Assembly: GCA_950097225.1 (NCBI GenBank)
Contig: CATNCE010000001.1
Coordinates: 48,451 to 112,450, forward strand
Source of the DNA: an uncultured Bacilli bacterium
Lineage (GTDB): Bacteria; Bacillota_I; Bacilli_A; RF39; UBA660
DNA length: 64,000 nucleotides
Direction: 5' to 3'
Below are positions 6,107-63,316 of the stretch, piece by piece; the stretch's first letter is position 1; each line of letters opens with the position of its first letter. Made by a program: the position numbers and the translations under genes. The notes beneath the pieces are model-generated. The model had not been told where the DNA came from. It made no database searches and saw only the letters and a list, made by a program, of their open reading frames with translations.

Positions 6107-9100
6107 ATGAAAAAACGAATAGTTGATTTCATAGTTGATAAAAGATATTTAGTTCTAATAACTTTTACAATTGGAGCTTTATTTTGTCTATTTATCAGCA
6201 GTTATGTGAATATAAATCGCGATATGATGGAGTATTTGCCAAGTTCTTCTGAGACGAGGATTGGCAGCGATATTATGGAAAGAGAATTTGGAAGTAGTAG
6301 TACAAGTGATCTTAATTTAATGTTTGAAGATTTAGATGACAAGATGTTTGTAAAAGAAAGTCTTCAAAAAATGGAACATGTTTTGGAAGTTAAATATGAT
6401 GAGTCTAGCAATTACAATAAGGATAATTATACTCTTTATGTACTTACGATTGACGATGAGGCAAAAGGAAAAAATGCTCGCCTGGTATATGATAATATTG
6501 TAAAAAATTATGATGATTATAAAATCTATATGAGCGGGAGTGTAGCAGAGTGGAATAAACCAGTATTACATGTGGGAATTATTATTTTAGCAATTGTTTG
6601 TGCTATGATTATTTTAATAATTATGTGTGAGTCGTATATTGAACCATTTTTATTTTTGTATGCTATTGGTTTAGCAGTATTTGTCAATATGGGGACTAAT
6701 TTAATCTTTAGTAGTGTTTCTAATATAACAAGTTCTATTGTAGCAATATTGCAATTAGCACTTTCGATGGATTATTCAATTATGTTGATGAACCGTTATA
6801 GTCAGGAGCGCAAACGTGCAAGTTCACGTGAAGAGGCAATGAAGAAATCACTTTTAAATGCATTTGGCTCTATAGCAAGTAGTTCAGTTACAACTATTGT
6901 TGGACTTCTCGCATTAGTGTTTATGAGTTTTACAATTGGAAAAGATTTGGGTTTTGTCTTAGCTAAAGGAGTCTTTTTAAGTTTAGTAAGTATTTTTCTT
7001 GTCTTGCCTTCTTTAATTTTATTGTTTGATAATATAATTGTTAAGACAAAGAAGAAAAGTTTGAATGTTAAGATGAATCTTATTGCTTCAGGAGTATATA
7101 AACTTAAATATCCAATGGCTATTTTGTTTGTTATTTTATTTGGTGTAAGTTTTTTATTAAAGGGAAATCTTCATATACTATATACGGGTACAGAAAATGA
7201 TGAAATTGCTGCTGTATTTGAAGAGAATAATCAAATAGCTATCGTGTATGAAAATAAGTATGAAGAAGTAGTGGCTGATTATTGTCGTAACTTGGAAGAT
7301 GAAAAAATTAGTAATGTCTTGTGTTATGGCAATACGATTGGGGAAAATTTATTTTACGATGAGGTAAATGGTAAGTTAGAGTATTTAGGTTTAGACGTTG
7401 CTATTGAAGATGATTTATTAAAAATAATTTACTATGATTATTATAATAAAGATATTGATAATAAACTAACATTAAATGAATTCGTTAATTTTATTAATAA
7501 AGAGGTCTTGACTAATGAAGAGTTTAGAATTGATTTGGATAAAAAGGTTATAGATAATATTCATATGTTAGAAGATCTAACTAATAAGGGGAATATAAAA
7601 AAGAAAATGTATCCTAAGGAGATGGCCAATAGTTTAGGTATTGATAAGGACTTAGTCGATAATTTGTATGTTTTATATTTTGCTGATAAAGTAAATAATA
7701 AGATTAAGATTGATGAGTTTGTTACTTTTATTAATAAGGAAGTTATAACCGATAAGACGTATGGAAGTATGATTGATGCTAGTATGAAGAGGAACATTAA
7801 TATGCTTTTACCATTTATATCTAAGAAAAATATCAATACTTTTTATACTAGTGAGTATTTAGCTAGTATTTTAGGAATAGAAAAAAGCGATATGGATAAA
7901 TTGATGCTTCTATATTATAAAGATGCTGATAGGGGTATTAAATTAAGTATTAAAGATATATTTATAGGCGTAGATTATCTAAATAAAAATACAGATTATT
8001 TAGTGGGTATAGATACCAGTTTATTTACTAAGTTAAACGTTTTTGCTACTAATAAGAATAATATTAATAATACTAAGATGAGTTATTTTGAGCATAGGGA
8101 AGTATTTAAGAGTATTAATCCTAATTTGGTAGATTTAGTTTATAGTGGATTAGATCAAAATACTCTTCTTAGTCCTTTAGAATTATGTGAGTTGGCATTA
8201 AGGGATTGGAGTGAATATTTGAGTGATGATGATAGTGCTAAGTTAAAGTTATTGGTTATGATTATGGGGAGTACTAATAATAATACTCTTTATAGTTCTA
8301 AGGAGTTTGCTAAAATGTTTTCTTTAGATAATGGAGTAGTTAATTCTTTGTATACTTTAGTTGCAAGTGTTAATGGCTATGAATTTAAAATGAGTATCTA
8401 CGAGGCTGTTAATGTTATTTTAACTAATAAAGATTTACTTCAGGATAAAATAGACTCTAATGTATTAGCAACGTTAGATAGAGTAAATTTAATAATGATG
8501 AATGTCAATAAGGGAAAATCTCTAAGTAGTAAAAAGATGGCTGATATTATGGGAATTAGCAGTGATAATGTTAAGTTACTTTATTCTTTATATGATAGTA
8601 AGAAAAGTCCTAAGAAGATGAATCTAATTGATTTTACTGACTTTATTATTAAGGAAGTTATGAATGATAAGCGTTTTAGTAGTTACTTTAAAGAAAAAGA
8701 TAAGAATGCTGTTAAGACGATAAATGAGATAATGAAGTTATCTTTGGATAATAAGCGTATGAGTGCAACACAAACGCATGCTGTTTTAGCTAATTTAACT
8801 GATGATTTAGATGTTAATTTGGTTAGATTAGTTTATTTATATTATGCTTCAGCAAATGAGTTTGATGAGCATATGAAACTTAGTTTGGAAACTTTGGTAA
8901 AATATATAAGTGATGATGTAATAAAAAGGGATATGTTTAAGGATTTCATTAGTGATGATATGCAAAATAAGATAACAGATGGAGCTAGTAGAATAGATGA
9001 GGCTAAACAAGAACTTGTTGGAGAACATTATTCGCGTATTGTATTAAATACTAAGTATTCTAAAGAAGGAAATGATACGTTTTCATTTGTTGCTAGGTTA

Positions 9101-9673
9101 AAAGATGATTTAGATAGGAAGGGGATTTATGTTATTGGGGAGTCTTCTATGGCTTATGAGATGAATGAGAGCTTTAATGGGGAACTTAATTTTATAACAC
9201 TTTTAACTATGTTAGCGATATTTGTGGTAGTAGCAGTGACATTTAAGTCCCTAATTATTCCTTGTATCTTAATATTAATTATTCAATGTGCAGTGTATAT
9301 AACGATGGCCTTTATGTCTTTAACAGGATCAAATGTATATTTTATTTCACTTTTAATTGTTCAGAGTATATTAATGGGAGCAACGATAGATTACGCGATT
9401 GTGTATACTTCATATTATTTAGAAGCTCGCAAGGATAAGAAGAATGTAAAAGATGCCATTATAAGTGCTTATAATAATTCGATACATACTATTTTGTGTT
9501 CATCTTCTATTTTAGTAATTGTAACACTGGTTGTTGGTAATTTTGCTTCGGCTATTGCTGCTAAAATATGTTTAACTTTATCCAAAGGATGTTTTGCTTC
9601 AGCCTTGCTTATATTGTTAATATTGCCAGTTATGCTTGCTATATTTGATCGATTTATTATTAAGAATAGATGA
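6107..9673 (+). CDS. MMPL/RND-superfamily membrane transporter with a very large repeat-containing extracytoplasmic loop
   Basis: Two hydrophobic 5-6 TM bundles (residues ~160-320 and ~1010-1190 of the track ORF) with MMPL-like motifs (LALSMDYSIMLMNRY; GATIDYAIVY). It is divergent from the TetR gene. ATG at 6107 with RBS GAAAGGAA. Confidence 0.8.
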   Translation: MKKRIVDFIVDKRYLVLITFTIGALFCLFISSYVNINRDMMEYLPSSSETRIGSDIMEREFGSSSTSDLNLMFEDLDDKMFVKESLQKMEHVLEVKYDESSNYNKDNYTLYVLTIDDEAKGKNARLVYDNIVKNYDDYKIYMSGSVAEWNKPVLHVGIIILAIVCAMIILIIMCESYIEPFLFLYAIGLAVFVNMGTNLIFSSVSNITSSIVAILQLALSMDYSIMLMNRYSQERKRASSREEAMKKSLLNAFGSIASSSVTTIVGLLALVFMSFTIGKDLGFVLAKGVFLSLVSIFLVLPSLILLFDNIIVKTKKKSLNVKMNLIASGVYKLKYPMAILFVILFGVSFLLKGNLHILYTGTENDEIAAVFEENNQIAIVYENKYEEVVADYCRNLEDEKISNVLCYGNTIGENLFYDEVNGKLEYLGLDVAIEDDLLKIIYYDYYNKDIDNKLTLNEFVNFINKEVLTNEEFRIDLDKKVIDNIHMLEDLTNKGNIKKKMYPKEMANSLGIDKDLVDNLYVLYFADKVNNKIKIDEFVTFINKEVITDKTYGSMIDASMKRNINMLLPFISKKNINTFYTSEYLASILGIEKSDMDKLMLLYYKDADRGIKLSIKDIFIGVDYLNKNTDYLVGIDTSLFTKLNVFATNKNNINNTKMSYFEHREVFKSINPNLVDLVYSGLDQNTLLSPLELCELALRDWSEYLSDDDSAKLKLLVMIMGSTNNNTLYSSKEFAKMFSLDNGVVNSLYTLVASVNGYEFKMSIYEAVNVILTNKDLLQDKIDSNVLATLDRVNLIMMNVNKGKSLSSKKMADIMGISSDNVKLLYSLYDSKKSPKKMNLIDFTDFIIKEVMNDKRFSSYFKEKDKNAVKTINEIMKLSLDNKRMSATQTHAVLANLTDDLDVNLVRLVYLYYASANEFDEHMKLSLETLVKYISDDVIKRDMFKDFISDDMQNKITDGASRIDEAKQELVGEHYSRIVLNTKYSKEGNDTFSFVARLKDDLDRKGIYVIGESSMAYEMNESFNGELNFITLLTMLAIFVVVAVTFKSLIIPCILILIIQCAVYITMAFMSLTGSNVYFISLLIVQSILMGATIDYAIVYTSYYLEARKDKKNVKDAIISAYNNSIHTILCSSSILVIVTLVVGNFASAIAAKICLTLSKGCFASALLILLILPVMLAIFDRFIIKNR

Positions 9674-9698
9674 CTAGTTTGAATAGTCATCTTTTTTT
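9668..9698 (+). terminator. Intrinsic terminator of the MMPL gene
   Basis: AGATGACTA / TAGTCATCT stem with a 7-nt loop, followed by T7. It overlaps the TGA stop. Confidence 0.75.
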
Positions 9699-9806
9699 GT
9701 TGTCTACATAATATCTGTCATTGTCTACTTTTAGTTTATCATTACACATTGTCATTGCAAAACGTGTCAAATTGTTCCTTTTTTCAACAAAACCCTTGAT
9801 TTTTTC

Positions 9807-9816
9807 GGGGGGGGGG
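9807..9816. repeat. Poly(G)10 homopolymer inside a promoter spacer
   Basis: Ten consecutive G in an AT-rich intergenic region. They are flanked by TTGATT (9796-9801) and TATGAT (9817-9822). Confidence 0.95.
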
Positions 9817-9875
9817 TATGATTAAATTATAGTAGGGAAGTATGTTTAGTTATAAACAAAAAAAGGTGATATGAT

Positions 9876-11303
9876 ATGACACAAAATAGTAAAAGAATAG
9901 CTGTTATTTTATCAGTGTTGATCTTGGTAATAGGTTTTGCTGCAGTAACAACAACACTAGTATTAAATGGTGGTTTGTTAATAAGCGAATCAGATGACTT
10001 TAAGATAATATTTACTGAGGCTATCTTAGATGGAAGAAAAGATAATAGTTTAATAAGTAATGATAAGAAAACGATAACGTTTGAGTCAAAAGAGTTATTA
10101 GATCTAAATGATAGAACTACATTAGAGTATATGGTAGCGAACACAAGTAGAAATTATGATGCAAATGTAAGTGTAAATTGTAGTATAAGTAGTAATACTA
10201 GTGAGTACGTTTATGTAAGAAATAATCCAAGTGAAATGATAGTTGAAGCTGGAACAAGTAAAAAAGGAACCATTGAAGTAGAGTTAATAAAAGTGTTAAC
10301 TGAGAGTAAAGAAGTCTCTTTAACATGCGAATTAGTTTCTACACCAATTGAAAGAGATAATTTAGCTAATGAATATACGGAACCCGAAAAAGAGCCCTTT
10401 AGTGAAGCTGGCACTATAAAAAGTATTTCATCTTATTATGAAAGTAATATGGGATATTTTGTCCCAAGTTCAGTAGACTTTTGGAAATATGCGTATATGA
10501 TTTCAAAGGTGGTTTTTGAAGACACTTTAACATCTCATGAAACAAGCGATGATCTAATATTTGATGTAAGTGCTGAAAATTCTTCAAATAAAGTTATGGC
10601 TTATTTAGTTGCTAATGAGAAACCTTATGGAGGAAAGCATCTCTATGATTTATATATACAATCTGAAACAGGTGTAAAAGCCAATTCTGATTCATCAAAT
10701 TTATTTTTGCAATTTAGTTCATTAGAAGAAATTGTTGGGCTAGAACATTTTGATACAAGTGGGGTAACAAATATGAGCTATATGTTTTCTTGTTGCGAAA
10801 TGCTAACAAGTTTAAATTTAAGTAAATTTGATACAAGCAATGTAAGCAATATGAGTTCTATGTTTTACGGGTGTAGTAGTTTAACAAAGTTAGATGTAGG
10901 TAATTTTGATACAAGTAATGTAAATAGTATGAGTGAAATGTTTCATTATTGTTGGAGTTTTATAGATTTAGATTTGGGTAATTTTGATACGAAGAATGTA
11001 ACAAATATGAGTGGTATGTTTTCTTATTGTAGAAGTTTAGCAAGTTTGGATTTAAGTAATTTTGATACCAGCAATGTAACAGATATGAGTGGGATGTTTT
11101 CTGATTGTAGTAGTTTAGCAAGTTTGGATATAAGTAAATTTGATACAAGCAATGTAACGCTTGAAGGTAATATGTTTTTTGGGATGCCAGATAATGCTAA
11201 AGTTTATGTAAAAGATATTGCATCTCAAGAATGGATTTTGAATTTACAAGGCAGCGATCGTCCCTCTTCCTGGACAACAGAAAATGTTGTTGTCAAAGTT
11301 TAA
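9876..11303 (+). CDS. Surface protein: N-terminal signal-anchor plus shared beta-rich module, C-terminal DUF285 / BspA-like leucine-rich repeats
   Basis: RBS AAGGTGA precedes the ATG at 9876. Signal-anchor: IAVILSVLILVIGFAAVTTTLVL. There are 5.5 copies of FDTSNVTNMSxMFxxCxSLxSLDLSN, the PF03382-type (DUF285) repeat. Confidence 0.8.
   Translation: MTQNSKRIAVILSVLILVIGFAAVTTTLVLNGGLLISESDDFKIIFTEAILDGRKDNSLISNDKKTITFESKELLDLNDRTTLEYMVANTSRNYDANVSVNCSISSNTSEYVYVRNNPSEMIVEAGTSKKGTIEVELIKVLTESKEVSLTCELVSTPIERDNLANEYTEPEKEPFSEAGTIKSISSYYESNMGYFVPSSVDFWKYAYMISKVVFEDTLTSHETSDDLIFDVSAENSSNKVMAYLVANEKPYGGKHLYDLYIQSETGVKANSDSSNLFLQFSSLEEIVGLEHFDTSGVTNMSYMFSCCEMLTSLNLSKFDTSNVSNMSSMFYGCSSLTKLDVGNFDTSNVNSMSEMFHYCWSFIDLDLGNFDTKNVTNMSGMFSYCRSLASLDLSNFDTSNVTDMSGMFSDCSSLASLDISKFDTSNVTLEGNMFFGMPDNAKVYVKDIASQEWILNLQGSDRPSSWTTENVVVKV
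10748..11170. repeat. 78-bp in-frame tandem repeats encoding DUF285 units
   Basis: 26-aa units repeat about 5.5 times. The antisense ORF 10960..11148 is an artefact of this periodicity. Confidence 0.8.
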
Positions 11304-21108: not shown

Positions 21109-22801
21109 ATGAGAAGAAAGAGTCTGCTAATTTTAATTATATTGTTACTTGTAGTTGGTTTTGCCAGTGTAGCAACAAATCTAATAATAAATAATACTTT
21201 AAACATCGGTTTTAATAATACATTCTTAGATGATGTTGTATTCATAAAAACTAAGACAGAAGGGGAGTCTTCCATAAGTGAAGATGGAAAAACAATGACC
21301 TATGATGCCAAGAAAATAAGTGCAGTGAATGAAGAGGCCATATTAACATTCTGGGTAAAGAACAAGAATACTCAGTATGATGCAGATGTAACCATTAATT
21401 GTAGTCTAAATGATAATTCAAGTACCTTATCTAATTTAGTAGATGTGACAATTGAACCCGATAAATTTACTCTGGCATCTAATGAAGTTAAAGTTGGTGA
21501 AGTAAAAATAAAGTTAAAAAGTGTAGTAATAGAAGAAAAGTCTGGAACCTTCACTTGTGAGTTAGTAGCAACACCAGAAGAAAGAGAAGTGCCAGGTGTA
21601 ATAACACCTGATAATTTATATGAAGATGGTGTAATAAATGGAGCTAAGCCTGAGTTATCAAAAGAGCTGATTCCAATAACTTTAGATAATACAGGAGTAG
21701 TAACATATGCTAATACCGATGAAAAATGGTATGATTATACAAATAAAGAATGGGCTAATGCAGTAATATTGGTTGATAGTCCAAGTAAAAACTATAATGT
21801 AGGAGATGTTATTTCTGAATCAGATATAGAATCATATTTCGTATGGATACCAAGATATCGATATAAGTTATTCCATGCTAATCAGGCAGATGGAACAACC
21901 ACAAAGTTGTCTGAGAGTATAGCTCAAGAAATCGAGATTGAGTTTGAGAGTAAAGATATACCAGTATCAACAGGAAGTCAAGATGGGGAATGGTTAACGC
22001 ATCCAGCTTTCACTAATTTTGATGTGAATGGTATGTAGATAGGAAAGTTTGAAACAGGTTATAAAGGAGCAACAAGTATAGCATCCTCGGAAGTAAATTC
22101 AAGTGATCCAACCAAAATACAGGTAAAACCAATTGTATACTCATGGTGTAATAATTCGGTAGGCAATTTCTTTAAAGCCATGTATAACTATAATCGTGAA
22201 TTAGATTCGCATATGATGAAAAATACAGAATGGGGGTGCAGTAGCATATTTAAGTCATTCTAAACATGGAATAAATACAGAGGTGCGAATAAATAATAAT
22301 TCAAACTATTTAACAGGATATGCAGCCAACACAAAAGATGCAGGACAAAGTACAACAAATAATCAACCATATAATACAGAAACAGGATATCTAGCTTCAA
22401 CGACTGGTAATATAACTGGGATATATGATATGTCAGGTGGGTCTTGGGAATATGTAGCTGGATACCTAGATGGAACTGTAGGGAGTAGTGGGCTCTCATT
22501 AACTGAAATAAGAAATACCTATAGTAAATATATAGATGTGTATGCAAGTAATAGTGGAATAACAACGTATAGCAACCGAATCTTAGGAGATGCAACAGGA
22601 GAGATGGGACCATTTTATGGAAGCAATCCATATTATAACAACTGGTATGATGATTATTTGAGCTTTGTGGACTCTTCCTACCCTTGGTTTTATCGCGGCA
22701 GCAGTTACTACTATGGCTCCGTTGCAGGCCAGTTCTACTTCGATAGGGGCACTGGTGATGCCTACAGCGGCGTCAGCGCACGCCTCGTTTTAGCTTTTTA
22801 G
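21109..22801 (+). pseudogene. Disrupted surface protein gene, copy A (shared N-terminal module plus FGE-sulfatase/C-type-lectin-like C-terminal domain)
   Basis: Collinear with the copy at 61626-63316. There is an in-frame TAG at 22036-22038 and a +1 frameshift in the G5 run at 22232-22236; deleting one G restores EWGAVAYLSHSKHG. GIYDMSGGSWEYV and YRGSS...VSARLVL resemble the GxYDMxGNVWEW and RGGSW...GFR motifs of FGE/SUMF1 domains. Confidence 0.75.
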
Positions 22802-48545: not shown

Positions 48546-48605
48546 TATGTAAAATTTTACAAAAAAATCAAAGAAATTACCTTGACAGAATAGTTTTGAC
48601 TTGCT

Positions 48606-48623
48606 AAAAAAAAAAAAAAAAAA
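48606..48623. repeat. Poly(A)18 homopolymer inside a promoter spacer
   Basis: Eighteen consecutive A between TTGCTA (48601-48606) and TGGTATATT (48624-48632). Confidence 0.95.
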
Positions 48624-48718
48624 TGGTATATTATTAATAGGGTAGTCCGCCTTGGAAGTAGTATATGAATAAGAAAAAAATAATTATGATAGCAATGCTT
48701 TGTTTTTTTGGAGGCTAG

Positions 48719-49831
48719 ATGATTGGTGTAGGAGCTGGGACTTTGTGTAATGCCAAAGATATCCTTTATAATGCTGGAAATGATGTTAATATTGATACTG
48801 TTGAGGATGCGTTAAATGATTTATATTATAGAGTAAATTCATTTAGTTTGTATGATCATGTTAAGAGCAAAGTTAAAGGAGATACATCTCTAATTGATTT
48901 TAATACTCCAGCTGATATTGCCGAAACAGGGGTGTATAAAACTATTGGTGAAGGAAATAAGGAAGTATATTTCTATCGTGGAAATGTTATAGATAATAAT
49001 GTTATATTTGCAGGCTTTTGTTGGAGTATAGTTAGAACAACAGAAAACGAGGGAGTTAAATTAATTTATAATGGTGTTAATGTTGATGGTAAGTGTGAGA
49101 GGACGAAGGGAGCTTCGATAGGAAAATCTGCATGGAATGTCGAAACAGGGGATAATGCCTATGTTGGATATATGTATGGTACACCTGAAAGTGATAATTA
49201 CAATGATACTCATGCTAATATAAATGATTCAGTGATAAAAAAGTATCTTGATAAATGGTACGAGAATAATGTTGCTGAAACCAGATATGAAGATTATTTG
49301 GATGATGTTATTTGGTGTAATGACCGCAGTATGAAAATTGGTGGAGATAATAATATCAAGGATAGTACTTATGGTATTTTAGGGTATGGGAAAAACAAAA
49401 CAGGATACGGAGTGTTGGCAAGGGGAAGTTTATATACTAAAAATGTTAGTCCAAGTTTAGTATGTCCTCAAGATGATGATAAATTTACTGTTGATAAAAA
49501 CAATGGAAATGGGAAATTAAAATATCCGCTTGGACTACTTACCTTAGATGAGGCTGCTTATGCTGGATTTACAAGTCATACTATGCCGGATGGAACAAGC
49601 AAAAAACCTTATTGTACGCATGATAATTATCTTTTTATGAAGGAATATTTTTGGGTTCTTACGCCTGTTTTTAATGATTTAGATCGTATTGAACAAGGAT
49701 TCGTCTTTTGCGATTTGAGTAACGCTTACGTTACTTATGAGTTAGATGTAAGGCCTTCTATAGCACTTCGGGCAGGGATCAGGGTGACTGCTGGAGATGG
49801 CACTGCCGCGAATCCGTTTATTATTGAATAA
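48719..49831 (+). CDS. Hypothetical secreted-type protein whose signal peptide is cut off by an in-frame TAG
   Basis: ORF with GGAGG 5 nt upstream. The same frame from the ATG at 48665 encodes MNKKKIIMIAMLCFFGG, then TAG (48716-48718). The C-terminus YFWVLTPV...VRPSIALRAGIRVTAGDGTAANPFII resembles the C-terminus of the pilin-like protein. Confidence 0.65.
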   Translation: MIGVGAGTLCNAKDILYNAGNDVNIDTVEDALNDLYYRVNSFSLYDHVKSKVKGDTSLIDFNTPADIAETGVYKTIGEGNKEVYFYRGNVIDNNVIFAGFCWSIVRTTENEGVKLIYNGVNVDGKCERTKGASIGKSAWNVETGDNAYVGYMYGTPESDNYNDTHANINDSVIKKYLDKWYENNVAETRYEDYLDDVIWCNDRSMKIGGDNNIKDSTYGILGYGKNKTGYGVLARGSLYTKNVSPSLVCPQDDDKFTVDKNNGNGKLKYPLGLLTLDEAAYAGFTSHTMPDGTSKKPYCTHDNYLFMKEYFWVLTPVFNDLDRIEQGFVFCDLSNAYVTYELDVRPSIALRAGIRVTAGDGTAANPFIIE

Positions 49832-61625: not shown

Positions 61626-63316
61626 ATGAAGAAGAAAAGTTTAATAATTTTAAGTATATTGTTACTTGTAATTGGATAGCGTAGCAACTAATTTGATAAT
61701 CAATAGCAATTTGAATATTGGATATAATAATACTTTTTTGGATGATGTTGTTTTCATAAAAACTAAGACAGAAGGTGAGTCTTCTATAAGTGAAAATGGA
61801 AAGGCGATTACATATGACGCTAAGAAAATAAGTGCAATGAATGAAGAAACAAATCTAACATTTTGGGTGAAGAATAAGAAGAATACTCAATATGATGCTA
61901 TGATGTAACCATTAATTGTAGTTTAAACGATAATTCAAGTAACTTAGTCAACTTAGTAGATGTAACAATAAATCCAAGTAGTTTTACATTAGCAAGTAAC
62001 GAATTCAAAACTGGAGAAGTAAAAGTAAAGTTAAAAAGTGTAGTAACAGAAGAGAAATCTGGAACCTTTACATGTGAGTTAGTAGCAACACCAGTAGAAA
62101 GAGAAGAGCCAGGTGTAATAACACCTGATAATTTATATGAAGGTAGTGTAATAAATGGAGCTAAGCCAGAGATATCTAAAAATTTAATACCAGTAACTTT
62201 AGATAATACTGGAGTAGTAAAATATGCTAATACGGATGAGAAATGGTATGATTATACAAATAAAGAATGGGCCAATGCAGTAATATTAGTAGACGAACCA
62301 AGTAAAAATTATAATATAGGTGACGTTATAGTTGAAGCTGATATTGAGTCATACTTCGTATGGGTACCAAGATATAGATATAAGTTGTTTAATGCCGAAC
62401 CAGCAGATGGTCTTAGTGCTCAATTACCAGAAAGTAATGCTCAAACAATTGAAATCGAGTTTGAGAGTAAAGACATACAAGCATCAACTGGAAGTAAGAA
62501 CGGCGAATGGTTAACGCATCCAGCTTTCACAAATTTCGATGTAAATGGGTTGCGGGTAGGTAAGTTTCAAACGGGATACAAAGGAGCGACTAGTGTAACA
62601 TCAGCTCAGGTGAATTCTTCGGATTCTACCAAAATTCAAGTAAAATCTAATGTGCCTTCGTGGCGGGATAACACACTTGGTAATTTCTTTAAAGCTATGT
62701 ATAACTACAATCGCGGACTTGGTTCACATATGATGAAAAATACGGAATGGGGAGCTGTTGCATATCTTCACATTCAAAGTATGGAATTAATACAAATTTG
62801 CGTATAAATAACAATTCAAATTATTTAACAGGCTATGCAGCAAATACACAGTATGCTCTTGCTAGTGCAACAAATAATTCAGCTTATAACACACCAGTTG
62901 GGTATTTGGCGAGTACAACAGGAAATATAAGTGGAATTTATGACATGTCTGGTGGGGCCTGGGAATATGTTGCTGGTTATAAAGATGGTGATTTAGGAAG
63001 TAGTGGACTTACAATGGAGGAGCTAAATGGTATTTATAAAGGATATGTGGATGTTTATCCAAGTGATTCAAGTACATCTACCTATAGCAAACGAATATTA
63101 GGAGATGCAACAGGAGAGATGGGGCCTTTCTATGATTATAATAATTTTAATTTAAGTAATTGGTATCCGTCTTATTCCTTTTTTGTAGATACAGCACCAT
63201 GATTTTATCGAGGTGGGCTCTATAATGCAACAACTCATGCGGGCCAATTTCATTTTTCTAGGGGAACAGGAGAAGTCAGTGATAAAATTGGAGCTCGCCT
63301 TGTTTTATTGGGTTAG
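61626..63316 (+). pseudogene. Disrupted surface protein gene, copy B (paralogue of 21109..22801)
   Basis: Four lesions relative to copy A: a ~5-nt deletion giving TAG at 61677; a +2 insertion near 61899; a -1 deletion near 62768; and an in-frame TGA at 63200-63202 where copy A has Trp (YPWFYRG versus AP*FYRG). Reading across these gives a full-length collinear protein ending IGARLVLLG. Confidence 0.8.

Follow-up and report, generated by a model that had tools for sequence, protein, structure and literature searches.

In this work we describe a poly-G tract located between the -35-like and -10 hexamers of a putative promoter upstream of a DUF285/PARCEL surface-protein gene, in a stretch of DNA of 64,000 nucleotides that was analyzed as a whole and is referred to here as the window. 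The tract differs in length between strains that are otherwise nearly identical, and it belongs to a promoter module that precedes at least four loci in a mouse-gut, Erysipelotrichales-like species. Considering its position, its conservation and its variation in length, we think it probable that this run of ten G residues (G10) is a slipped-strand hotspot in the spacer of a sigma-A-type promoter and that it works as a switch for stochastic expression of a surface gene.

Anatomy of the Putative Poly-G Promoter

In the window sequence, the region containing the tract reads ...AAACCC TTGATT TTTTC GGGGGGGGGG TATGAT TAAATTATAG... on the + strand. The -35-like hexamer TTGATT (9796-9801) matches TTGACA at 4/6 positions and is invariant in every full copy of the element, and the -10 hexamer TATGAT (9817-9822) matches TATAAT at 5/6 positions and is invariant in all copies. 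Direct reading of the sequence places TTTTC (9802-9806) at the 5′ end of the spacer, while the uninterrupted G10 tract (9807-9816), which is the mutable element, makes up most of its length (9802-9816). The spacer is therefore 15 nt long with G10, and tracts of G9, G11 and G12 correspond to spacers of 14, 16 and 17 nt. An earlier note on this DNA had assigned exactly these coordinates to the two hexamers and the G10 run, and had correctly calculated both the 15-nt spacer and the 17 nt that would be reached at G12. The conserved 5′ UTR (9823-9875, + strand) carries an RBS, AAGGTGA, at 9863-9869, and the ATG is found at 9876, 53 nt from the end of the -10 hexamer; transcription is predicted to start near 9829-9830. 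Two minor length differences were also seen in this region: the T6 in and after the -35 (9800-9805) is T5 in one X4 contig, where the spacer is one nucleotide shorter, and the A7 before the RBS (9858-9864) is A6 in several module copies.

The window has a G+C content of 31.6%, and its composition predicts about 0.006 G10 runs over 64 kb. The G10 tract is the sole run of seven or more G or C residues in the window, the runner-up being a G6, which bears out the earlier note's view that such a run is improbable by chance. A homopolymer of a different, poly-A class was observed elsewhere in the window: an A18 run (48606-48623, within 48596-48632) is preceded by TTGACT/TTGCTA and followed by an extended -10, TGGTATATT, in front of an ORF at 48719-49831 (370 aa, without an NCBIfam match), and this element is predicted to be a second homopolymer-bearing promoter.

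The gene upstream of the tract (6107-9673) was identified by profile match as encoding an MMPL/RND-type transporter, and it ends in an intrinsic terminator (9668-9692, + strand) with a 9-bp stem, a 7-nt loop and a T run. The terminator isolates the downstream gene, which therefore needs a promoter of its own. Within the 202-nt intergenic region, TTGATT/TATGAT is the only conserved promoter-like pair, the remaining promoter-like matches being located in sequence that is altered or deleted in other alleles. For example, a -10-like TATAGT at 9828-9833 reads AAAAAT in other alleles when the copies are aligned; it was rejected as a -10 on this basis, leaving TATGAT as the conserved one. We also considered GGGTAT as a sigma-B-like -10, and this reading was set aside because no GTTTAA-like -35 is found at 12-15 nt. 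The poly-G promoter was missing from a promoter consensus scan because that scan accepts spacers of 16-18 nt only and the one described here has 15. Both the consensus matches and their conservation point to this pair as the likely promoter.

Just past the MMPL terminator (TTGTCTACATAATATCTGTCATTGTCTACTTTTAG...), the stretch 9686-9746 had a summed contig depth roughly 10-fold that of its flanks in three metagenomes (92-114 vs 8.8), and at 9686 and 9732 it is joined to different sequence on its upstream side. With its TTGTCTAC/TGTCA motifs, it resembles a small dispersed repeat of intergenic DNA in its own right.

The Downstream Gene Encodes a DUF285/PARCEL Surface Protein

The gene that follows the tract (9876-11303, + strand) encodes a 475-aa protein, P0001, classified as a DUF285/PARCEL (BspA-like LRR) surface protein by Pfam and NCBIfam matches. 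It matched Pfam DUF285 (PF03382) with E=3.6e-38 and 130.4 bits (cut-off 25), and NCBIfam TIGR02167 (PARCEL repeat) over 5 repeats with E=6.7e-55 and 182 bits (cut-off 30), so that its tandem repeats of ~25-26 aa place it in the family above both curated cut-offs. The earlier note had put the tract about 55 nt 5′ of the ATG of a repeat-containing DUF285 gene, in agreement with these matches and with the 53 nt given above. P0001 has an N-terminal hydrophobic anchor, apparently an uncleaved signal anchor, and its N-terminus, MTQNSKRIAVILSVLILVIGFAAVTTTLVLNGG, has no cysteine and hence no lipobox. The products are therefore not lipoproteins and fall outside the variable-lipoprotein families.

The two ends of the protein are conserved to different degrees. 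Paralogues share 92-94% identity over an N-terminal module made up of residues 1-170 (9876-10385) but diverge in the C-terminal repeats, and identity over the whole protein is 57-60%. Relatives of residues 44-161, with 34-40% identity, were also found by tblastn in two other ORFs, at 21235-21588 and 61902-62105 of the window, which indicates that the export/stalk module is fused to other C-terminal parts as well. Even at the same locus, the DUF285 bodies of two strains are just 57% identical (P0001 vs P0019), implying that the front end has been kept and the entire gene body behind it exchanged.

The Promoter Module Is Present at Several Loci

Alignment of the copies showed a module with a constant order of elements, namely upstream block, -35, poly-G, -10, 5′ UTR and leader, starting near 9762 (ACGTGTCAAATTGTYCCTTTTTTCAACAA). 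The upstream block, ACGTGTCAAATTGTYCC-TTTTTT-CAACAA (9762-9795, + strand), is conserved in copies from three loci, and contigs from several metagenomes have break-points at 9764 and 9777/9778; it marks where the shared module begins on the left, and it may serve as a UP element or as a site for a regulator. In the paralogous copies from the three loci neither hexamer changes, and the neighboring bases vary both directly 5′ of the -35, where some copies have AACC and others GTCT, and directly 3′ of the -10.

Full sequences for three loci were obtained from assemblies retrieved via homologous proteins. Locus A, which is that of the window, lies downstream of the MMPL gene in the homologue-containing assemblies (L004 and L015-L017); at locus B (L003, L022) the neighbors are mnmA plus an IS30-like HTH_38 gene on one side and dnaG-rpoD on the other; and locus C (L018-L021, L023 and L024) is flanked by a NUDIX gene and a glycosyltransferase operon. 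The 192-kb contig from which the window comes encodes a further paralogue, P0017, beyond the limits of the window. When metagenome contigs were aligned to the region, the core of the module (~9778-9834) was found to run into different sequence on both sides, with at least five upstream flanks (breaks at 9752, 9764, 9777/9778, 9801 and 9811) and four or more continuations on the downstream side, where breaks occur at 9834 and 9836 in addition to the 5′ UTR of the window itself. Consistent with a multi-copy element, the summed contig depth over 9811-9828 in four runs exceeded that of the flanks by a factor of ~3 or more. The family thus has the organization of Vlp/Vmc-type systems, in which a shared 5′ cassette (promoter, UTR and leader) is fused to divergent bodies. 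Distant homologues from other mouse-gut species (P0066 and P0088) have ordinary promoters without a homopolymer tract, and the tract is therefore a lineage-specific addition rather than a family-wide feature.

We also observed rearrangements at the edges of the module and within it. The window allele has ~19 extra nt (ATCATTACACATTGTCATTGC) at 9741-9761, upstream of the module, which are missing from the L015-type allele. At locus C, two ENA assemblies (L023 2900-2995 and L024 1-100) have G6 directly before TATGAT, with the -35 half replaced by the unrelated TTGGGTATATCCCTAATTCTA; another strain (L019) keeps the full GATTTTTTC-G10-TATGAT. The break-point at this locus falls inside the G tract, which indicates that the tract is also a point of sequence exchange.

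Tract Length Varies Between Nearly Identical Strains

We compared the length of the tract among assemblies and Logan contigs, many of them at 3-10x depth. At locus A, ten independent assemblies or contigs, including the window, comprised four with G9, five with G10 and one with G11. Among these, G9 was found in L015 and L004, G10 in L017 and G11 in L016, and these four had 0 mismatches in the 220-400 nt upstream of the tract. L015 and L016, which are two samples from one study, have 3 other differences in 6.18 kb of upstream sequence and differ by 2 nt in the tract, and all of their A/T runs of 7-9 nt (T9, A8 and T8) are identical. In strains of the window type, X4, X5 and X2 carry G10 and X3 carries G9, and a 12,168-nt contig from X13 with the MMPL context carries G9. 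The copy at locus C in L019 has G10, and an uninterrupted G8 was found in a single copy from X6. A fourth context, with the upstream flank TAGAATAGCC...CACGTTTA, had G10, G9 and G9AG across three runs; it was recovered with contigs aligned at 85% likeness, and almost nothing was recovered at 95%. Two other copies served as controls and behaved as expected for slippage: the interrupted tract GGGAGGGG at locus B was identical in L003, L022 and contigs of X3 and X4, and the G6 form of locus C was identical in two samples whose locus-A tracts were G9 and G11. The tract is thus longer than the eight residues at which a homopolymer is considered capable of slipping, it differs in length between near-identical genomes, and its mutability is specific to the site.

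Across copies G10 is the commonest length. The observed lengths, G8-G11, correspond to spacers of 13-16 nt, so the 17-nt optimum is never reached, and neither G12 nor G13 was seen in any assembly or contig copy examined. Only the L016 allele (G11, 16-nt spacer) is within the usual range of 16-18 nt. The earlier note had proposed that the tract is a promoter-spacer device for phase or expression variation and had suggested comparing strains for an invariant tract. The tract is not invariant, given G9, G10 and G11 in near-identical locus-A sequences, and these lengths, together with G9, G10 and G9AG at a second locus and the constancy of the hexamers, are consistent with such a device.

A G10 run would be mutable whether or not the mutability is used, and the predominance of G10 requires some consideration. 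It could equally mean that most copies are low or off, near the mutational equilibrium of G tracts, that the best spacer is of a length other than 17 nt, or that the tract does something else. One alternative, which we consider unlikely, is that the G run represents an invariable element of structure or regulation (a binding site, a rigid spacer, or a set of Gs contacting sigma just upstream of the -10) or a joint for module exchange, and that the changes in length are neutral slippage noise. This would account for the modal G10 across several copies and samples and for the nominally optimal G12 being unseen, and the locus C strains in which G6 and the -10 lie behind unrelated sequence, as well as the loose contig end at 9811, agree with a joint. 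However, the tract differs in nearly identical strains whereas interrupted or short tracts and A/T runs are constant, and uninterrupted G9-G11 tracts at several loci of a genome with 32% G+C are hard to explain without selection for mutability. Moreover, a change of 1-2 nt in spacer length strongly alters promoter strength (PMC2268961, PMC13742949), which argues against neutrality.

We also considered that the length differences might be homopolymer errors of sequencing or assembly and that the real tract is constant, which we regard as quite improbable. Long G runs are error-prone in Illumina chemistry, the informative ENA contigs have 4-6x coverage, and Logan contigs fragment at this repeat. 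On the other hand, the differences amount to as much as 2 nt (G9 vs G11), a shift that is rare in a consensus of several reads, and they span assemblies from several studies and assemblers, while the same samples gave exact agreement in T9, A8 and T8, as well as in the G6 and GGGAGGGG copies. Finally, there is very little chance that the promoter lies elsewhere, with the tract in the leader (where it might cause polymerase slippage or form RNA structure), or that it is switched by DNA inversion, given that the weak promoter-like matches at 9684-9712 and 9715-9742 were rejected as unconserved (in the other allele 19 nt are deleted and TATCAT reads TAGCAA, and they are not conserved at other loci either), that the 15-nt inverted repeat bracketing the promoter (9687-9701 / 9855-9869) is a low-complexity T7/A7 match, arising from the tail of the terminator and the A run that precedes the RBS, and has no counterpart at locus B, and that an inverton, having no conserved flanking inverted repeats, was rejected after no strand-changing joints or inverted orientation were found in the contigs of 20 runs aligned to the region.

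Other G-rich tracts were noted in the same species, in coding regions. G7 runs occur at L019 4996-5002, in the Glyco_tran_28_C gene of the operon downstream of locus C, and at L022 131-137, in a small ORF near mnmA; these may be intragenic slippage sites.

Distribution of the Locus

Almost all of the public runs that contain the locus are mouse-gut metagenomes. The glycyl-tRNA synthetase encoded nearby clusters at ≥90% identity with a protein from an Erysipelotrichales MAG, and Erysipelotrichales are commonly placed close to Mollicutes. A scan of genome_contigs with the promoter pattern returned neither this species nor its relatives and gave two matches at chance level, in Gallionella and Allofustis seminis; the JGI metagenome_contigs and viral_contigs gave no matches, and an exact look-up of P0001, P0017 and P0162 found no match. 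The searches turned up no genuine RNA run with the gene; X18 has 6% of its words, in contigs that break off at the repeat. The match in Allofustis seminis DSM 15817 (L002 245-275), which is an unrelated Lactobacillales genome, reads CTTGATTTTTTC-G7-TAC-TATGATTAAA with a 15-nt spacer and is followed, after ~20 nt, by the start codon (ATG) of a short ORF with a signal peptide. Its placement is promoter-like, and it is plausibly a chance hit.

Proposed Mechanism

Our preferred reading, in which the G tract is a slippage-prone switch in the promoter spacer, would operate as follows. The bacterium places a portable module of ~110-620 bp, made up of the upstream block, the -35, the poly-G tract, the -10 and the 5′ UTR, and often including the shared signal-anchor with the 170-aa N-terminal domain, before several DUF285/PARCEL surface-protein genes. 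Slippage during replication would add or remove Gs and so shift the length of the spacer, which in turn would alter the contact of RNA polymerase with both hexamers and thereby the strength of the promoter. As a result, the transcription of each gene would go up or down stochastically, heritably and independently at each locus, and independent switching of the loci would produce combinatorial variation of the cell surface. As judged from spacer lengths, expression would depend on tract length, with G11-G13 likely high and G8-G10 low or off, and switching within clones would presumably be reversible.

Comparison With Known Systems

Poly-G phase variation in a promoter spacer is known from porA of Neisseria meningitidis. 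The spacing of the opc promoter is similarly set by a poly-C tract (PMC13742949). The element described here resembles both in having a G:C homopolymer of ~9-13 nt between the -35 and -10, here putative, of a gene for an outer-surface protein, and in Neisseria slippage by one base resets the spacer and gives graded or on/off expression. It differs from them in that its host is a Gram-positive-type gut commensal rather than a proteobacterial pathogen, in that the promoter is multi-copy and common to a paralogous family, and in that the lengths observed give spacers of 13-16 nt, 17 nt never having been seen. In Bordetella pertussis fim2/fim3, the length of a poly-C promoter tract sets the distance from an upstream element to the -10, and the fim promoters need the activator BvgA bound upstream. 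The likeness in this case is that of a surface-structure gene family with a shared promoter box carrying a C:G homopolymer. In contrast to BvgA in Bordetella, we know of no activator for the poly-G module; the conserved GTGTCAAATTG block upstream of the promoter could be a candidate activator site.

A closer likeness than that to porA/opc is found in mycoplasmas, namely vlp of Mycoplasma hyorhinis, maa2 of M. arthritidis and vmm/vmc of M. mycoides/capricolum. Indels in the spacer switch vlp, maa2 and vmm (PMC2268961), and in the M. mycoides cluster the promoters of lipoprotein genes contain poly-TA tracts (PMC3053259). In these systems each dispersed or clustered surface gene has its own conserved 5′ cassette, and a mutable repeat in the -35/-10 spacer allows independent, combinatorial switching (PMC2268961, PMC3053259). 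Three differences should be mentioned: the repeat is poly-G here and poly-A or (TA)n in the mycoplasmas, the products here have no lipobox cysteine, and the organism uses the standard code, since its ORFs are intact under table 11. There is also a connection through the gene family itself, as DUF285/PARCEL proteins form a multigene surface family that is characteristic of ruminant mycoplasmas, which express few of the members, and no promoter repeat has been implicated there (PMC2824730, PMC10634449, PMC2996958); for the mycoplasma DUF285 (drp) genes in particular, no link to such repeats has been made (PMC2824730).

These parallels allow a broader scheme, which we put forward tentatively and hold to have somewhat less than an even chance of being correct in full. 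A walled commensal near the Mollicutes would vary its surface combinatorially, in the manner of mycoplasmas, by means of portable contingency promoters. Such promoters would comprise a poly-G class (at least four loci) and a poly-A class (A18, 48606-48623), and they would be grafted, together with the shared export/N-terminal stalk, onto heads that can replace one another (DUF285/PARCEL, among others). In this scheme the G tract would be both a switch and a recombination joint through which promoter halves and gene bodies are exchanged.

Implications for Gut Commensals

Nearly all that is known of phase variation in gut commensals concerns invertible promoters, for the most part those of Bacteroides (PMC11868660, PMC13742949). 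A full-text literature search returned no report of repeat-based promoter switches in Erysipelotrichales, nor of repeat-switched DUF285/PARCEL genes outside mycoplasmas or in walled Firmicutes. The mechanism itself is textbook, and the value of the present case lies in the lineage, in the portable module and in the link to the DUF285 families of mycoplasmas. If the switch is confirmed, an abundant mouse-gut Firmicute would be diversifying its surface stochastically, locus by locus, with a bearing on IgA targeting, phage receptors and strain persistence, and poly-G tracts would have to be regarded as sites where metagenome assemblies break and strain-level calls are unreliable. If, in addition, the mycoplasma-style scheme is true, phase variation by simple sequence repeats would be a major overlooked source of heterogeneity in gut Firmicutes, beside the invertons of Bacteroides.
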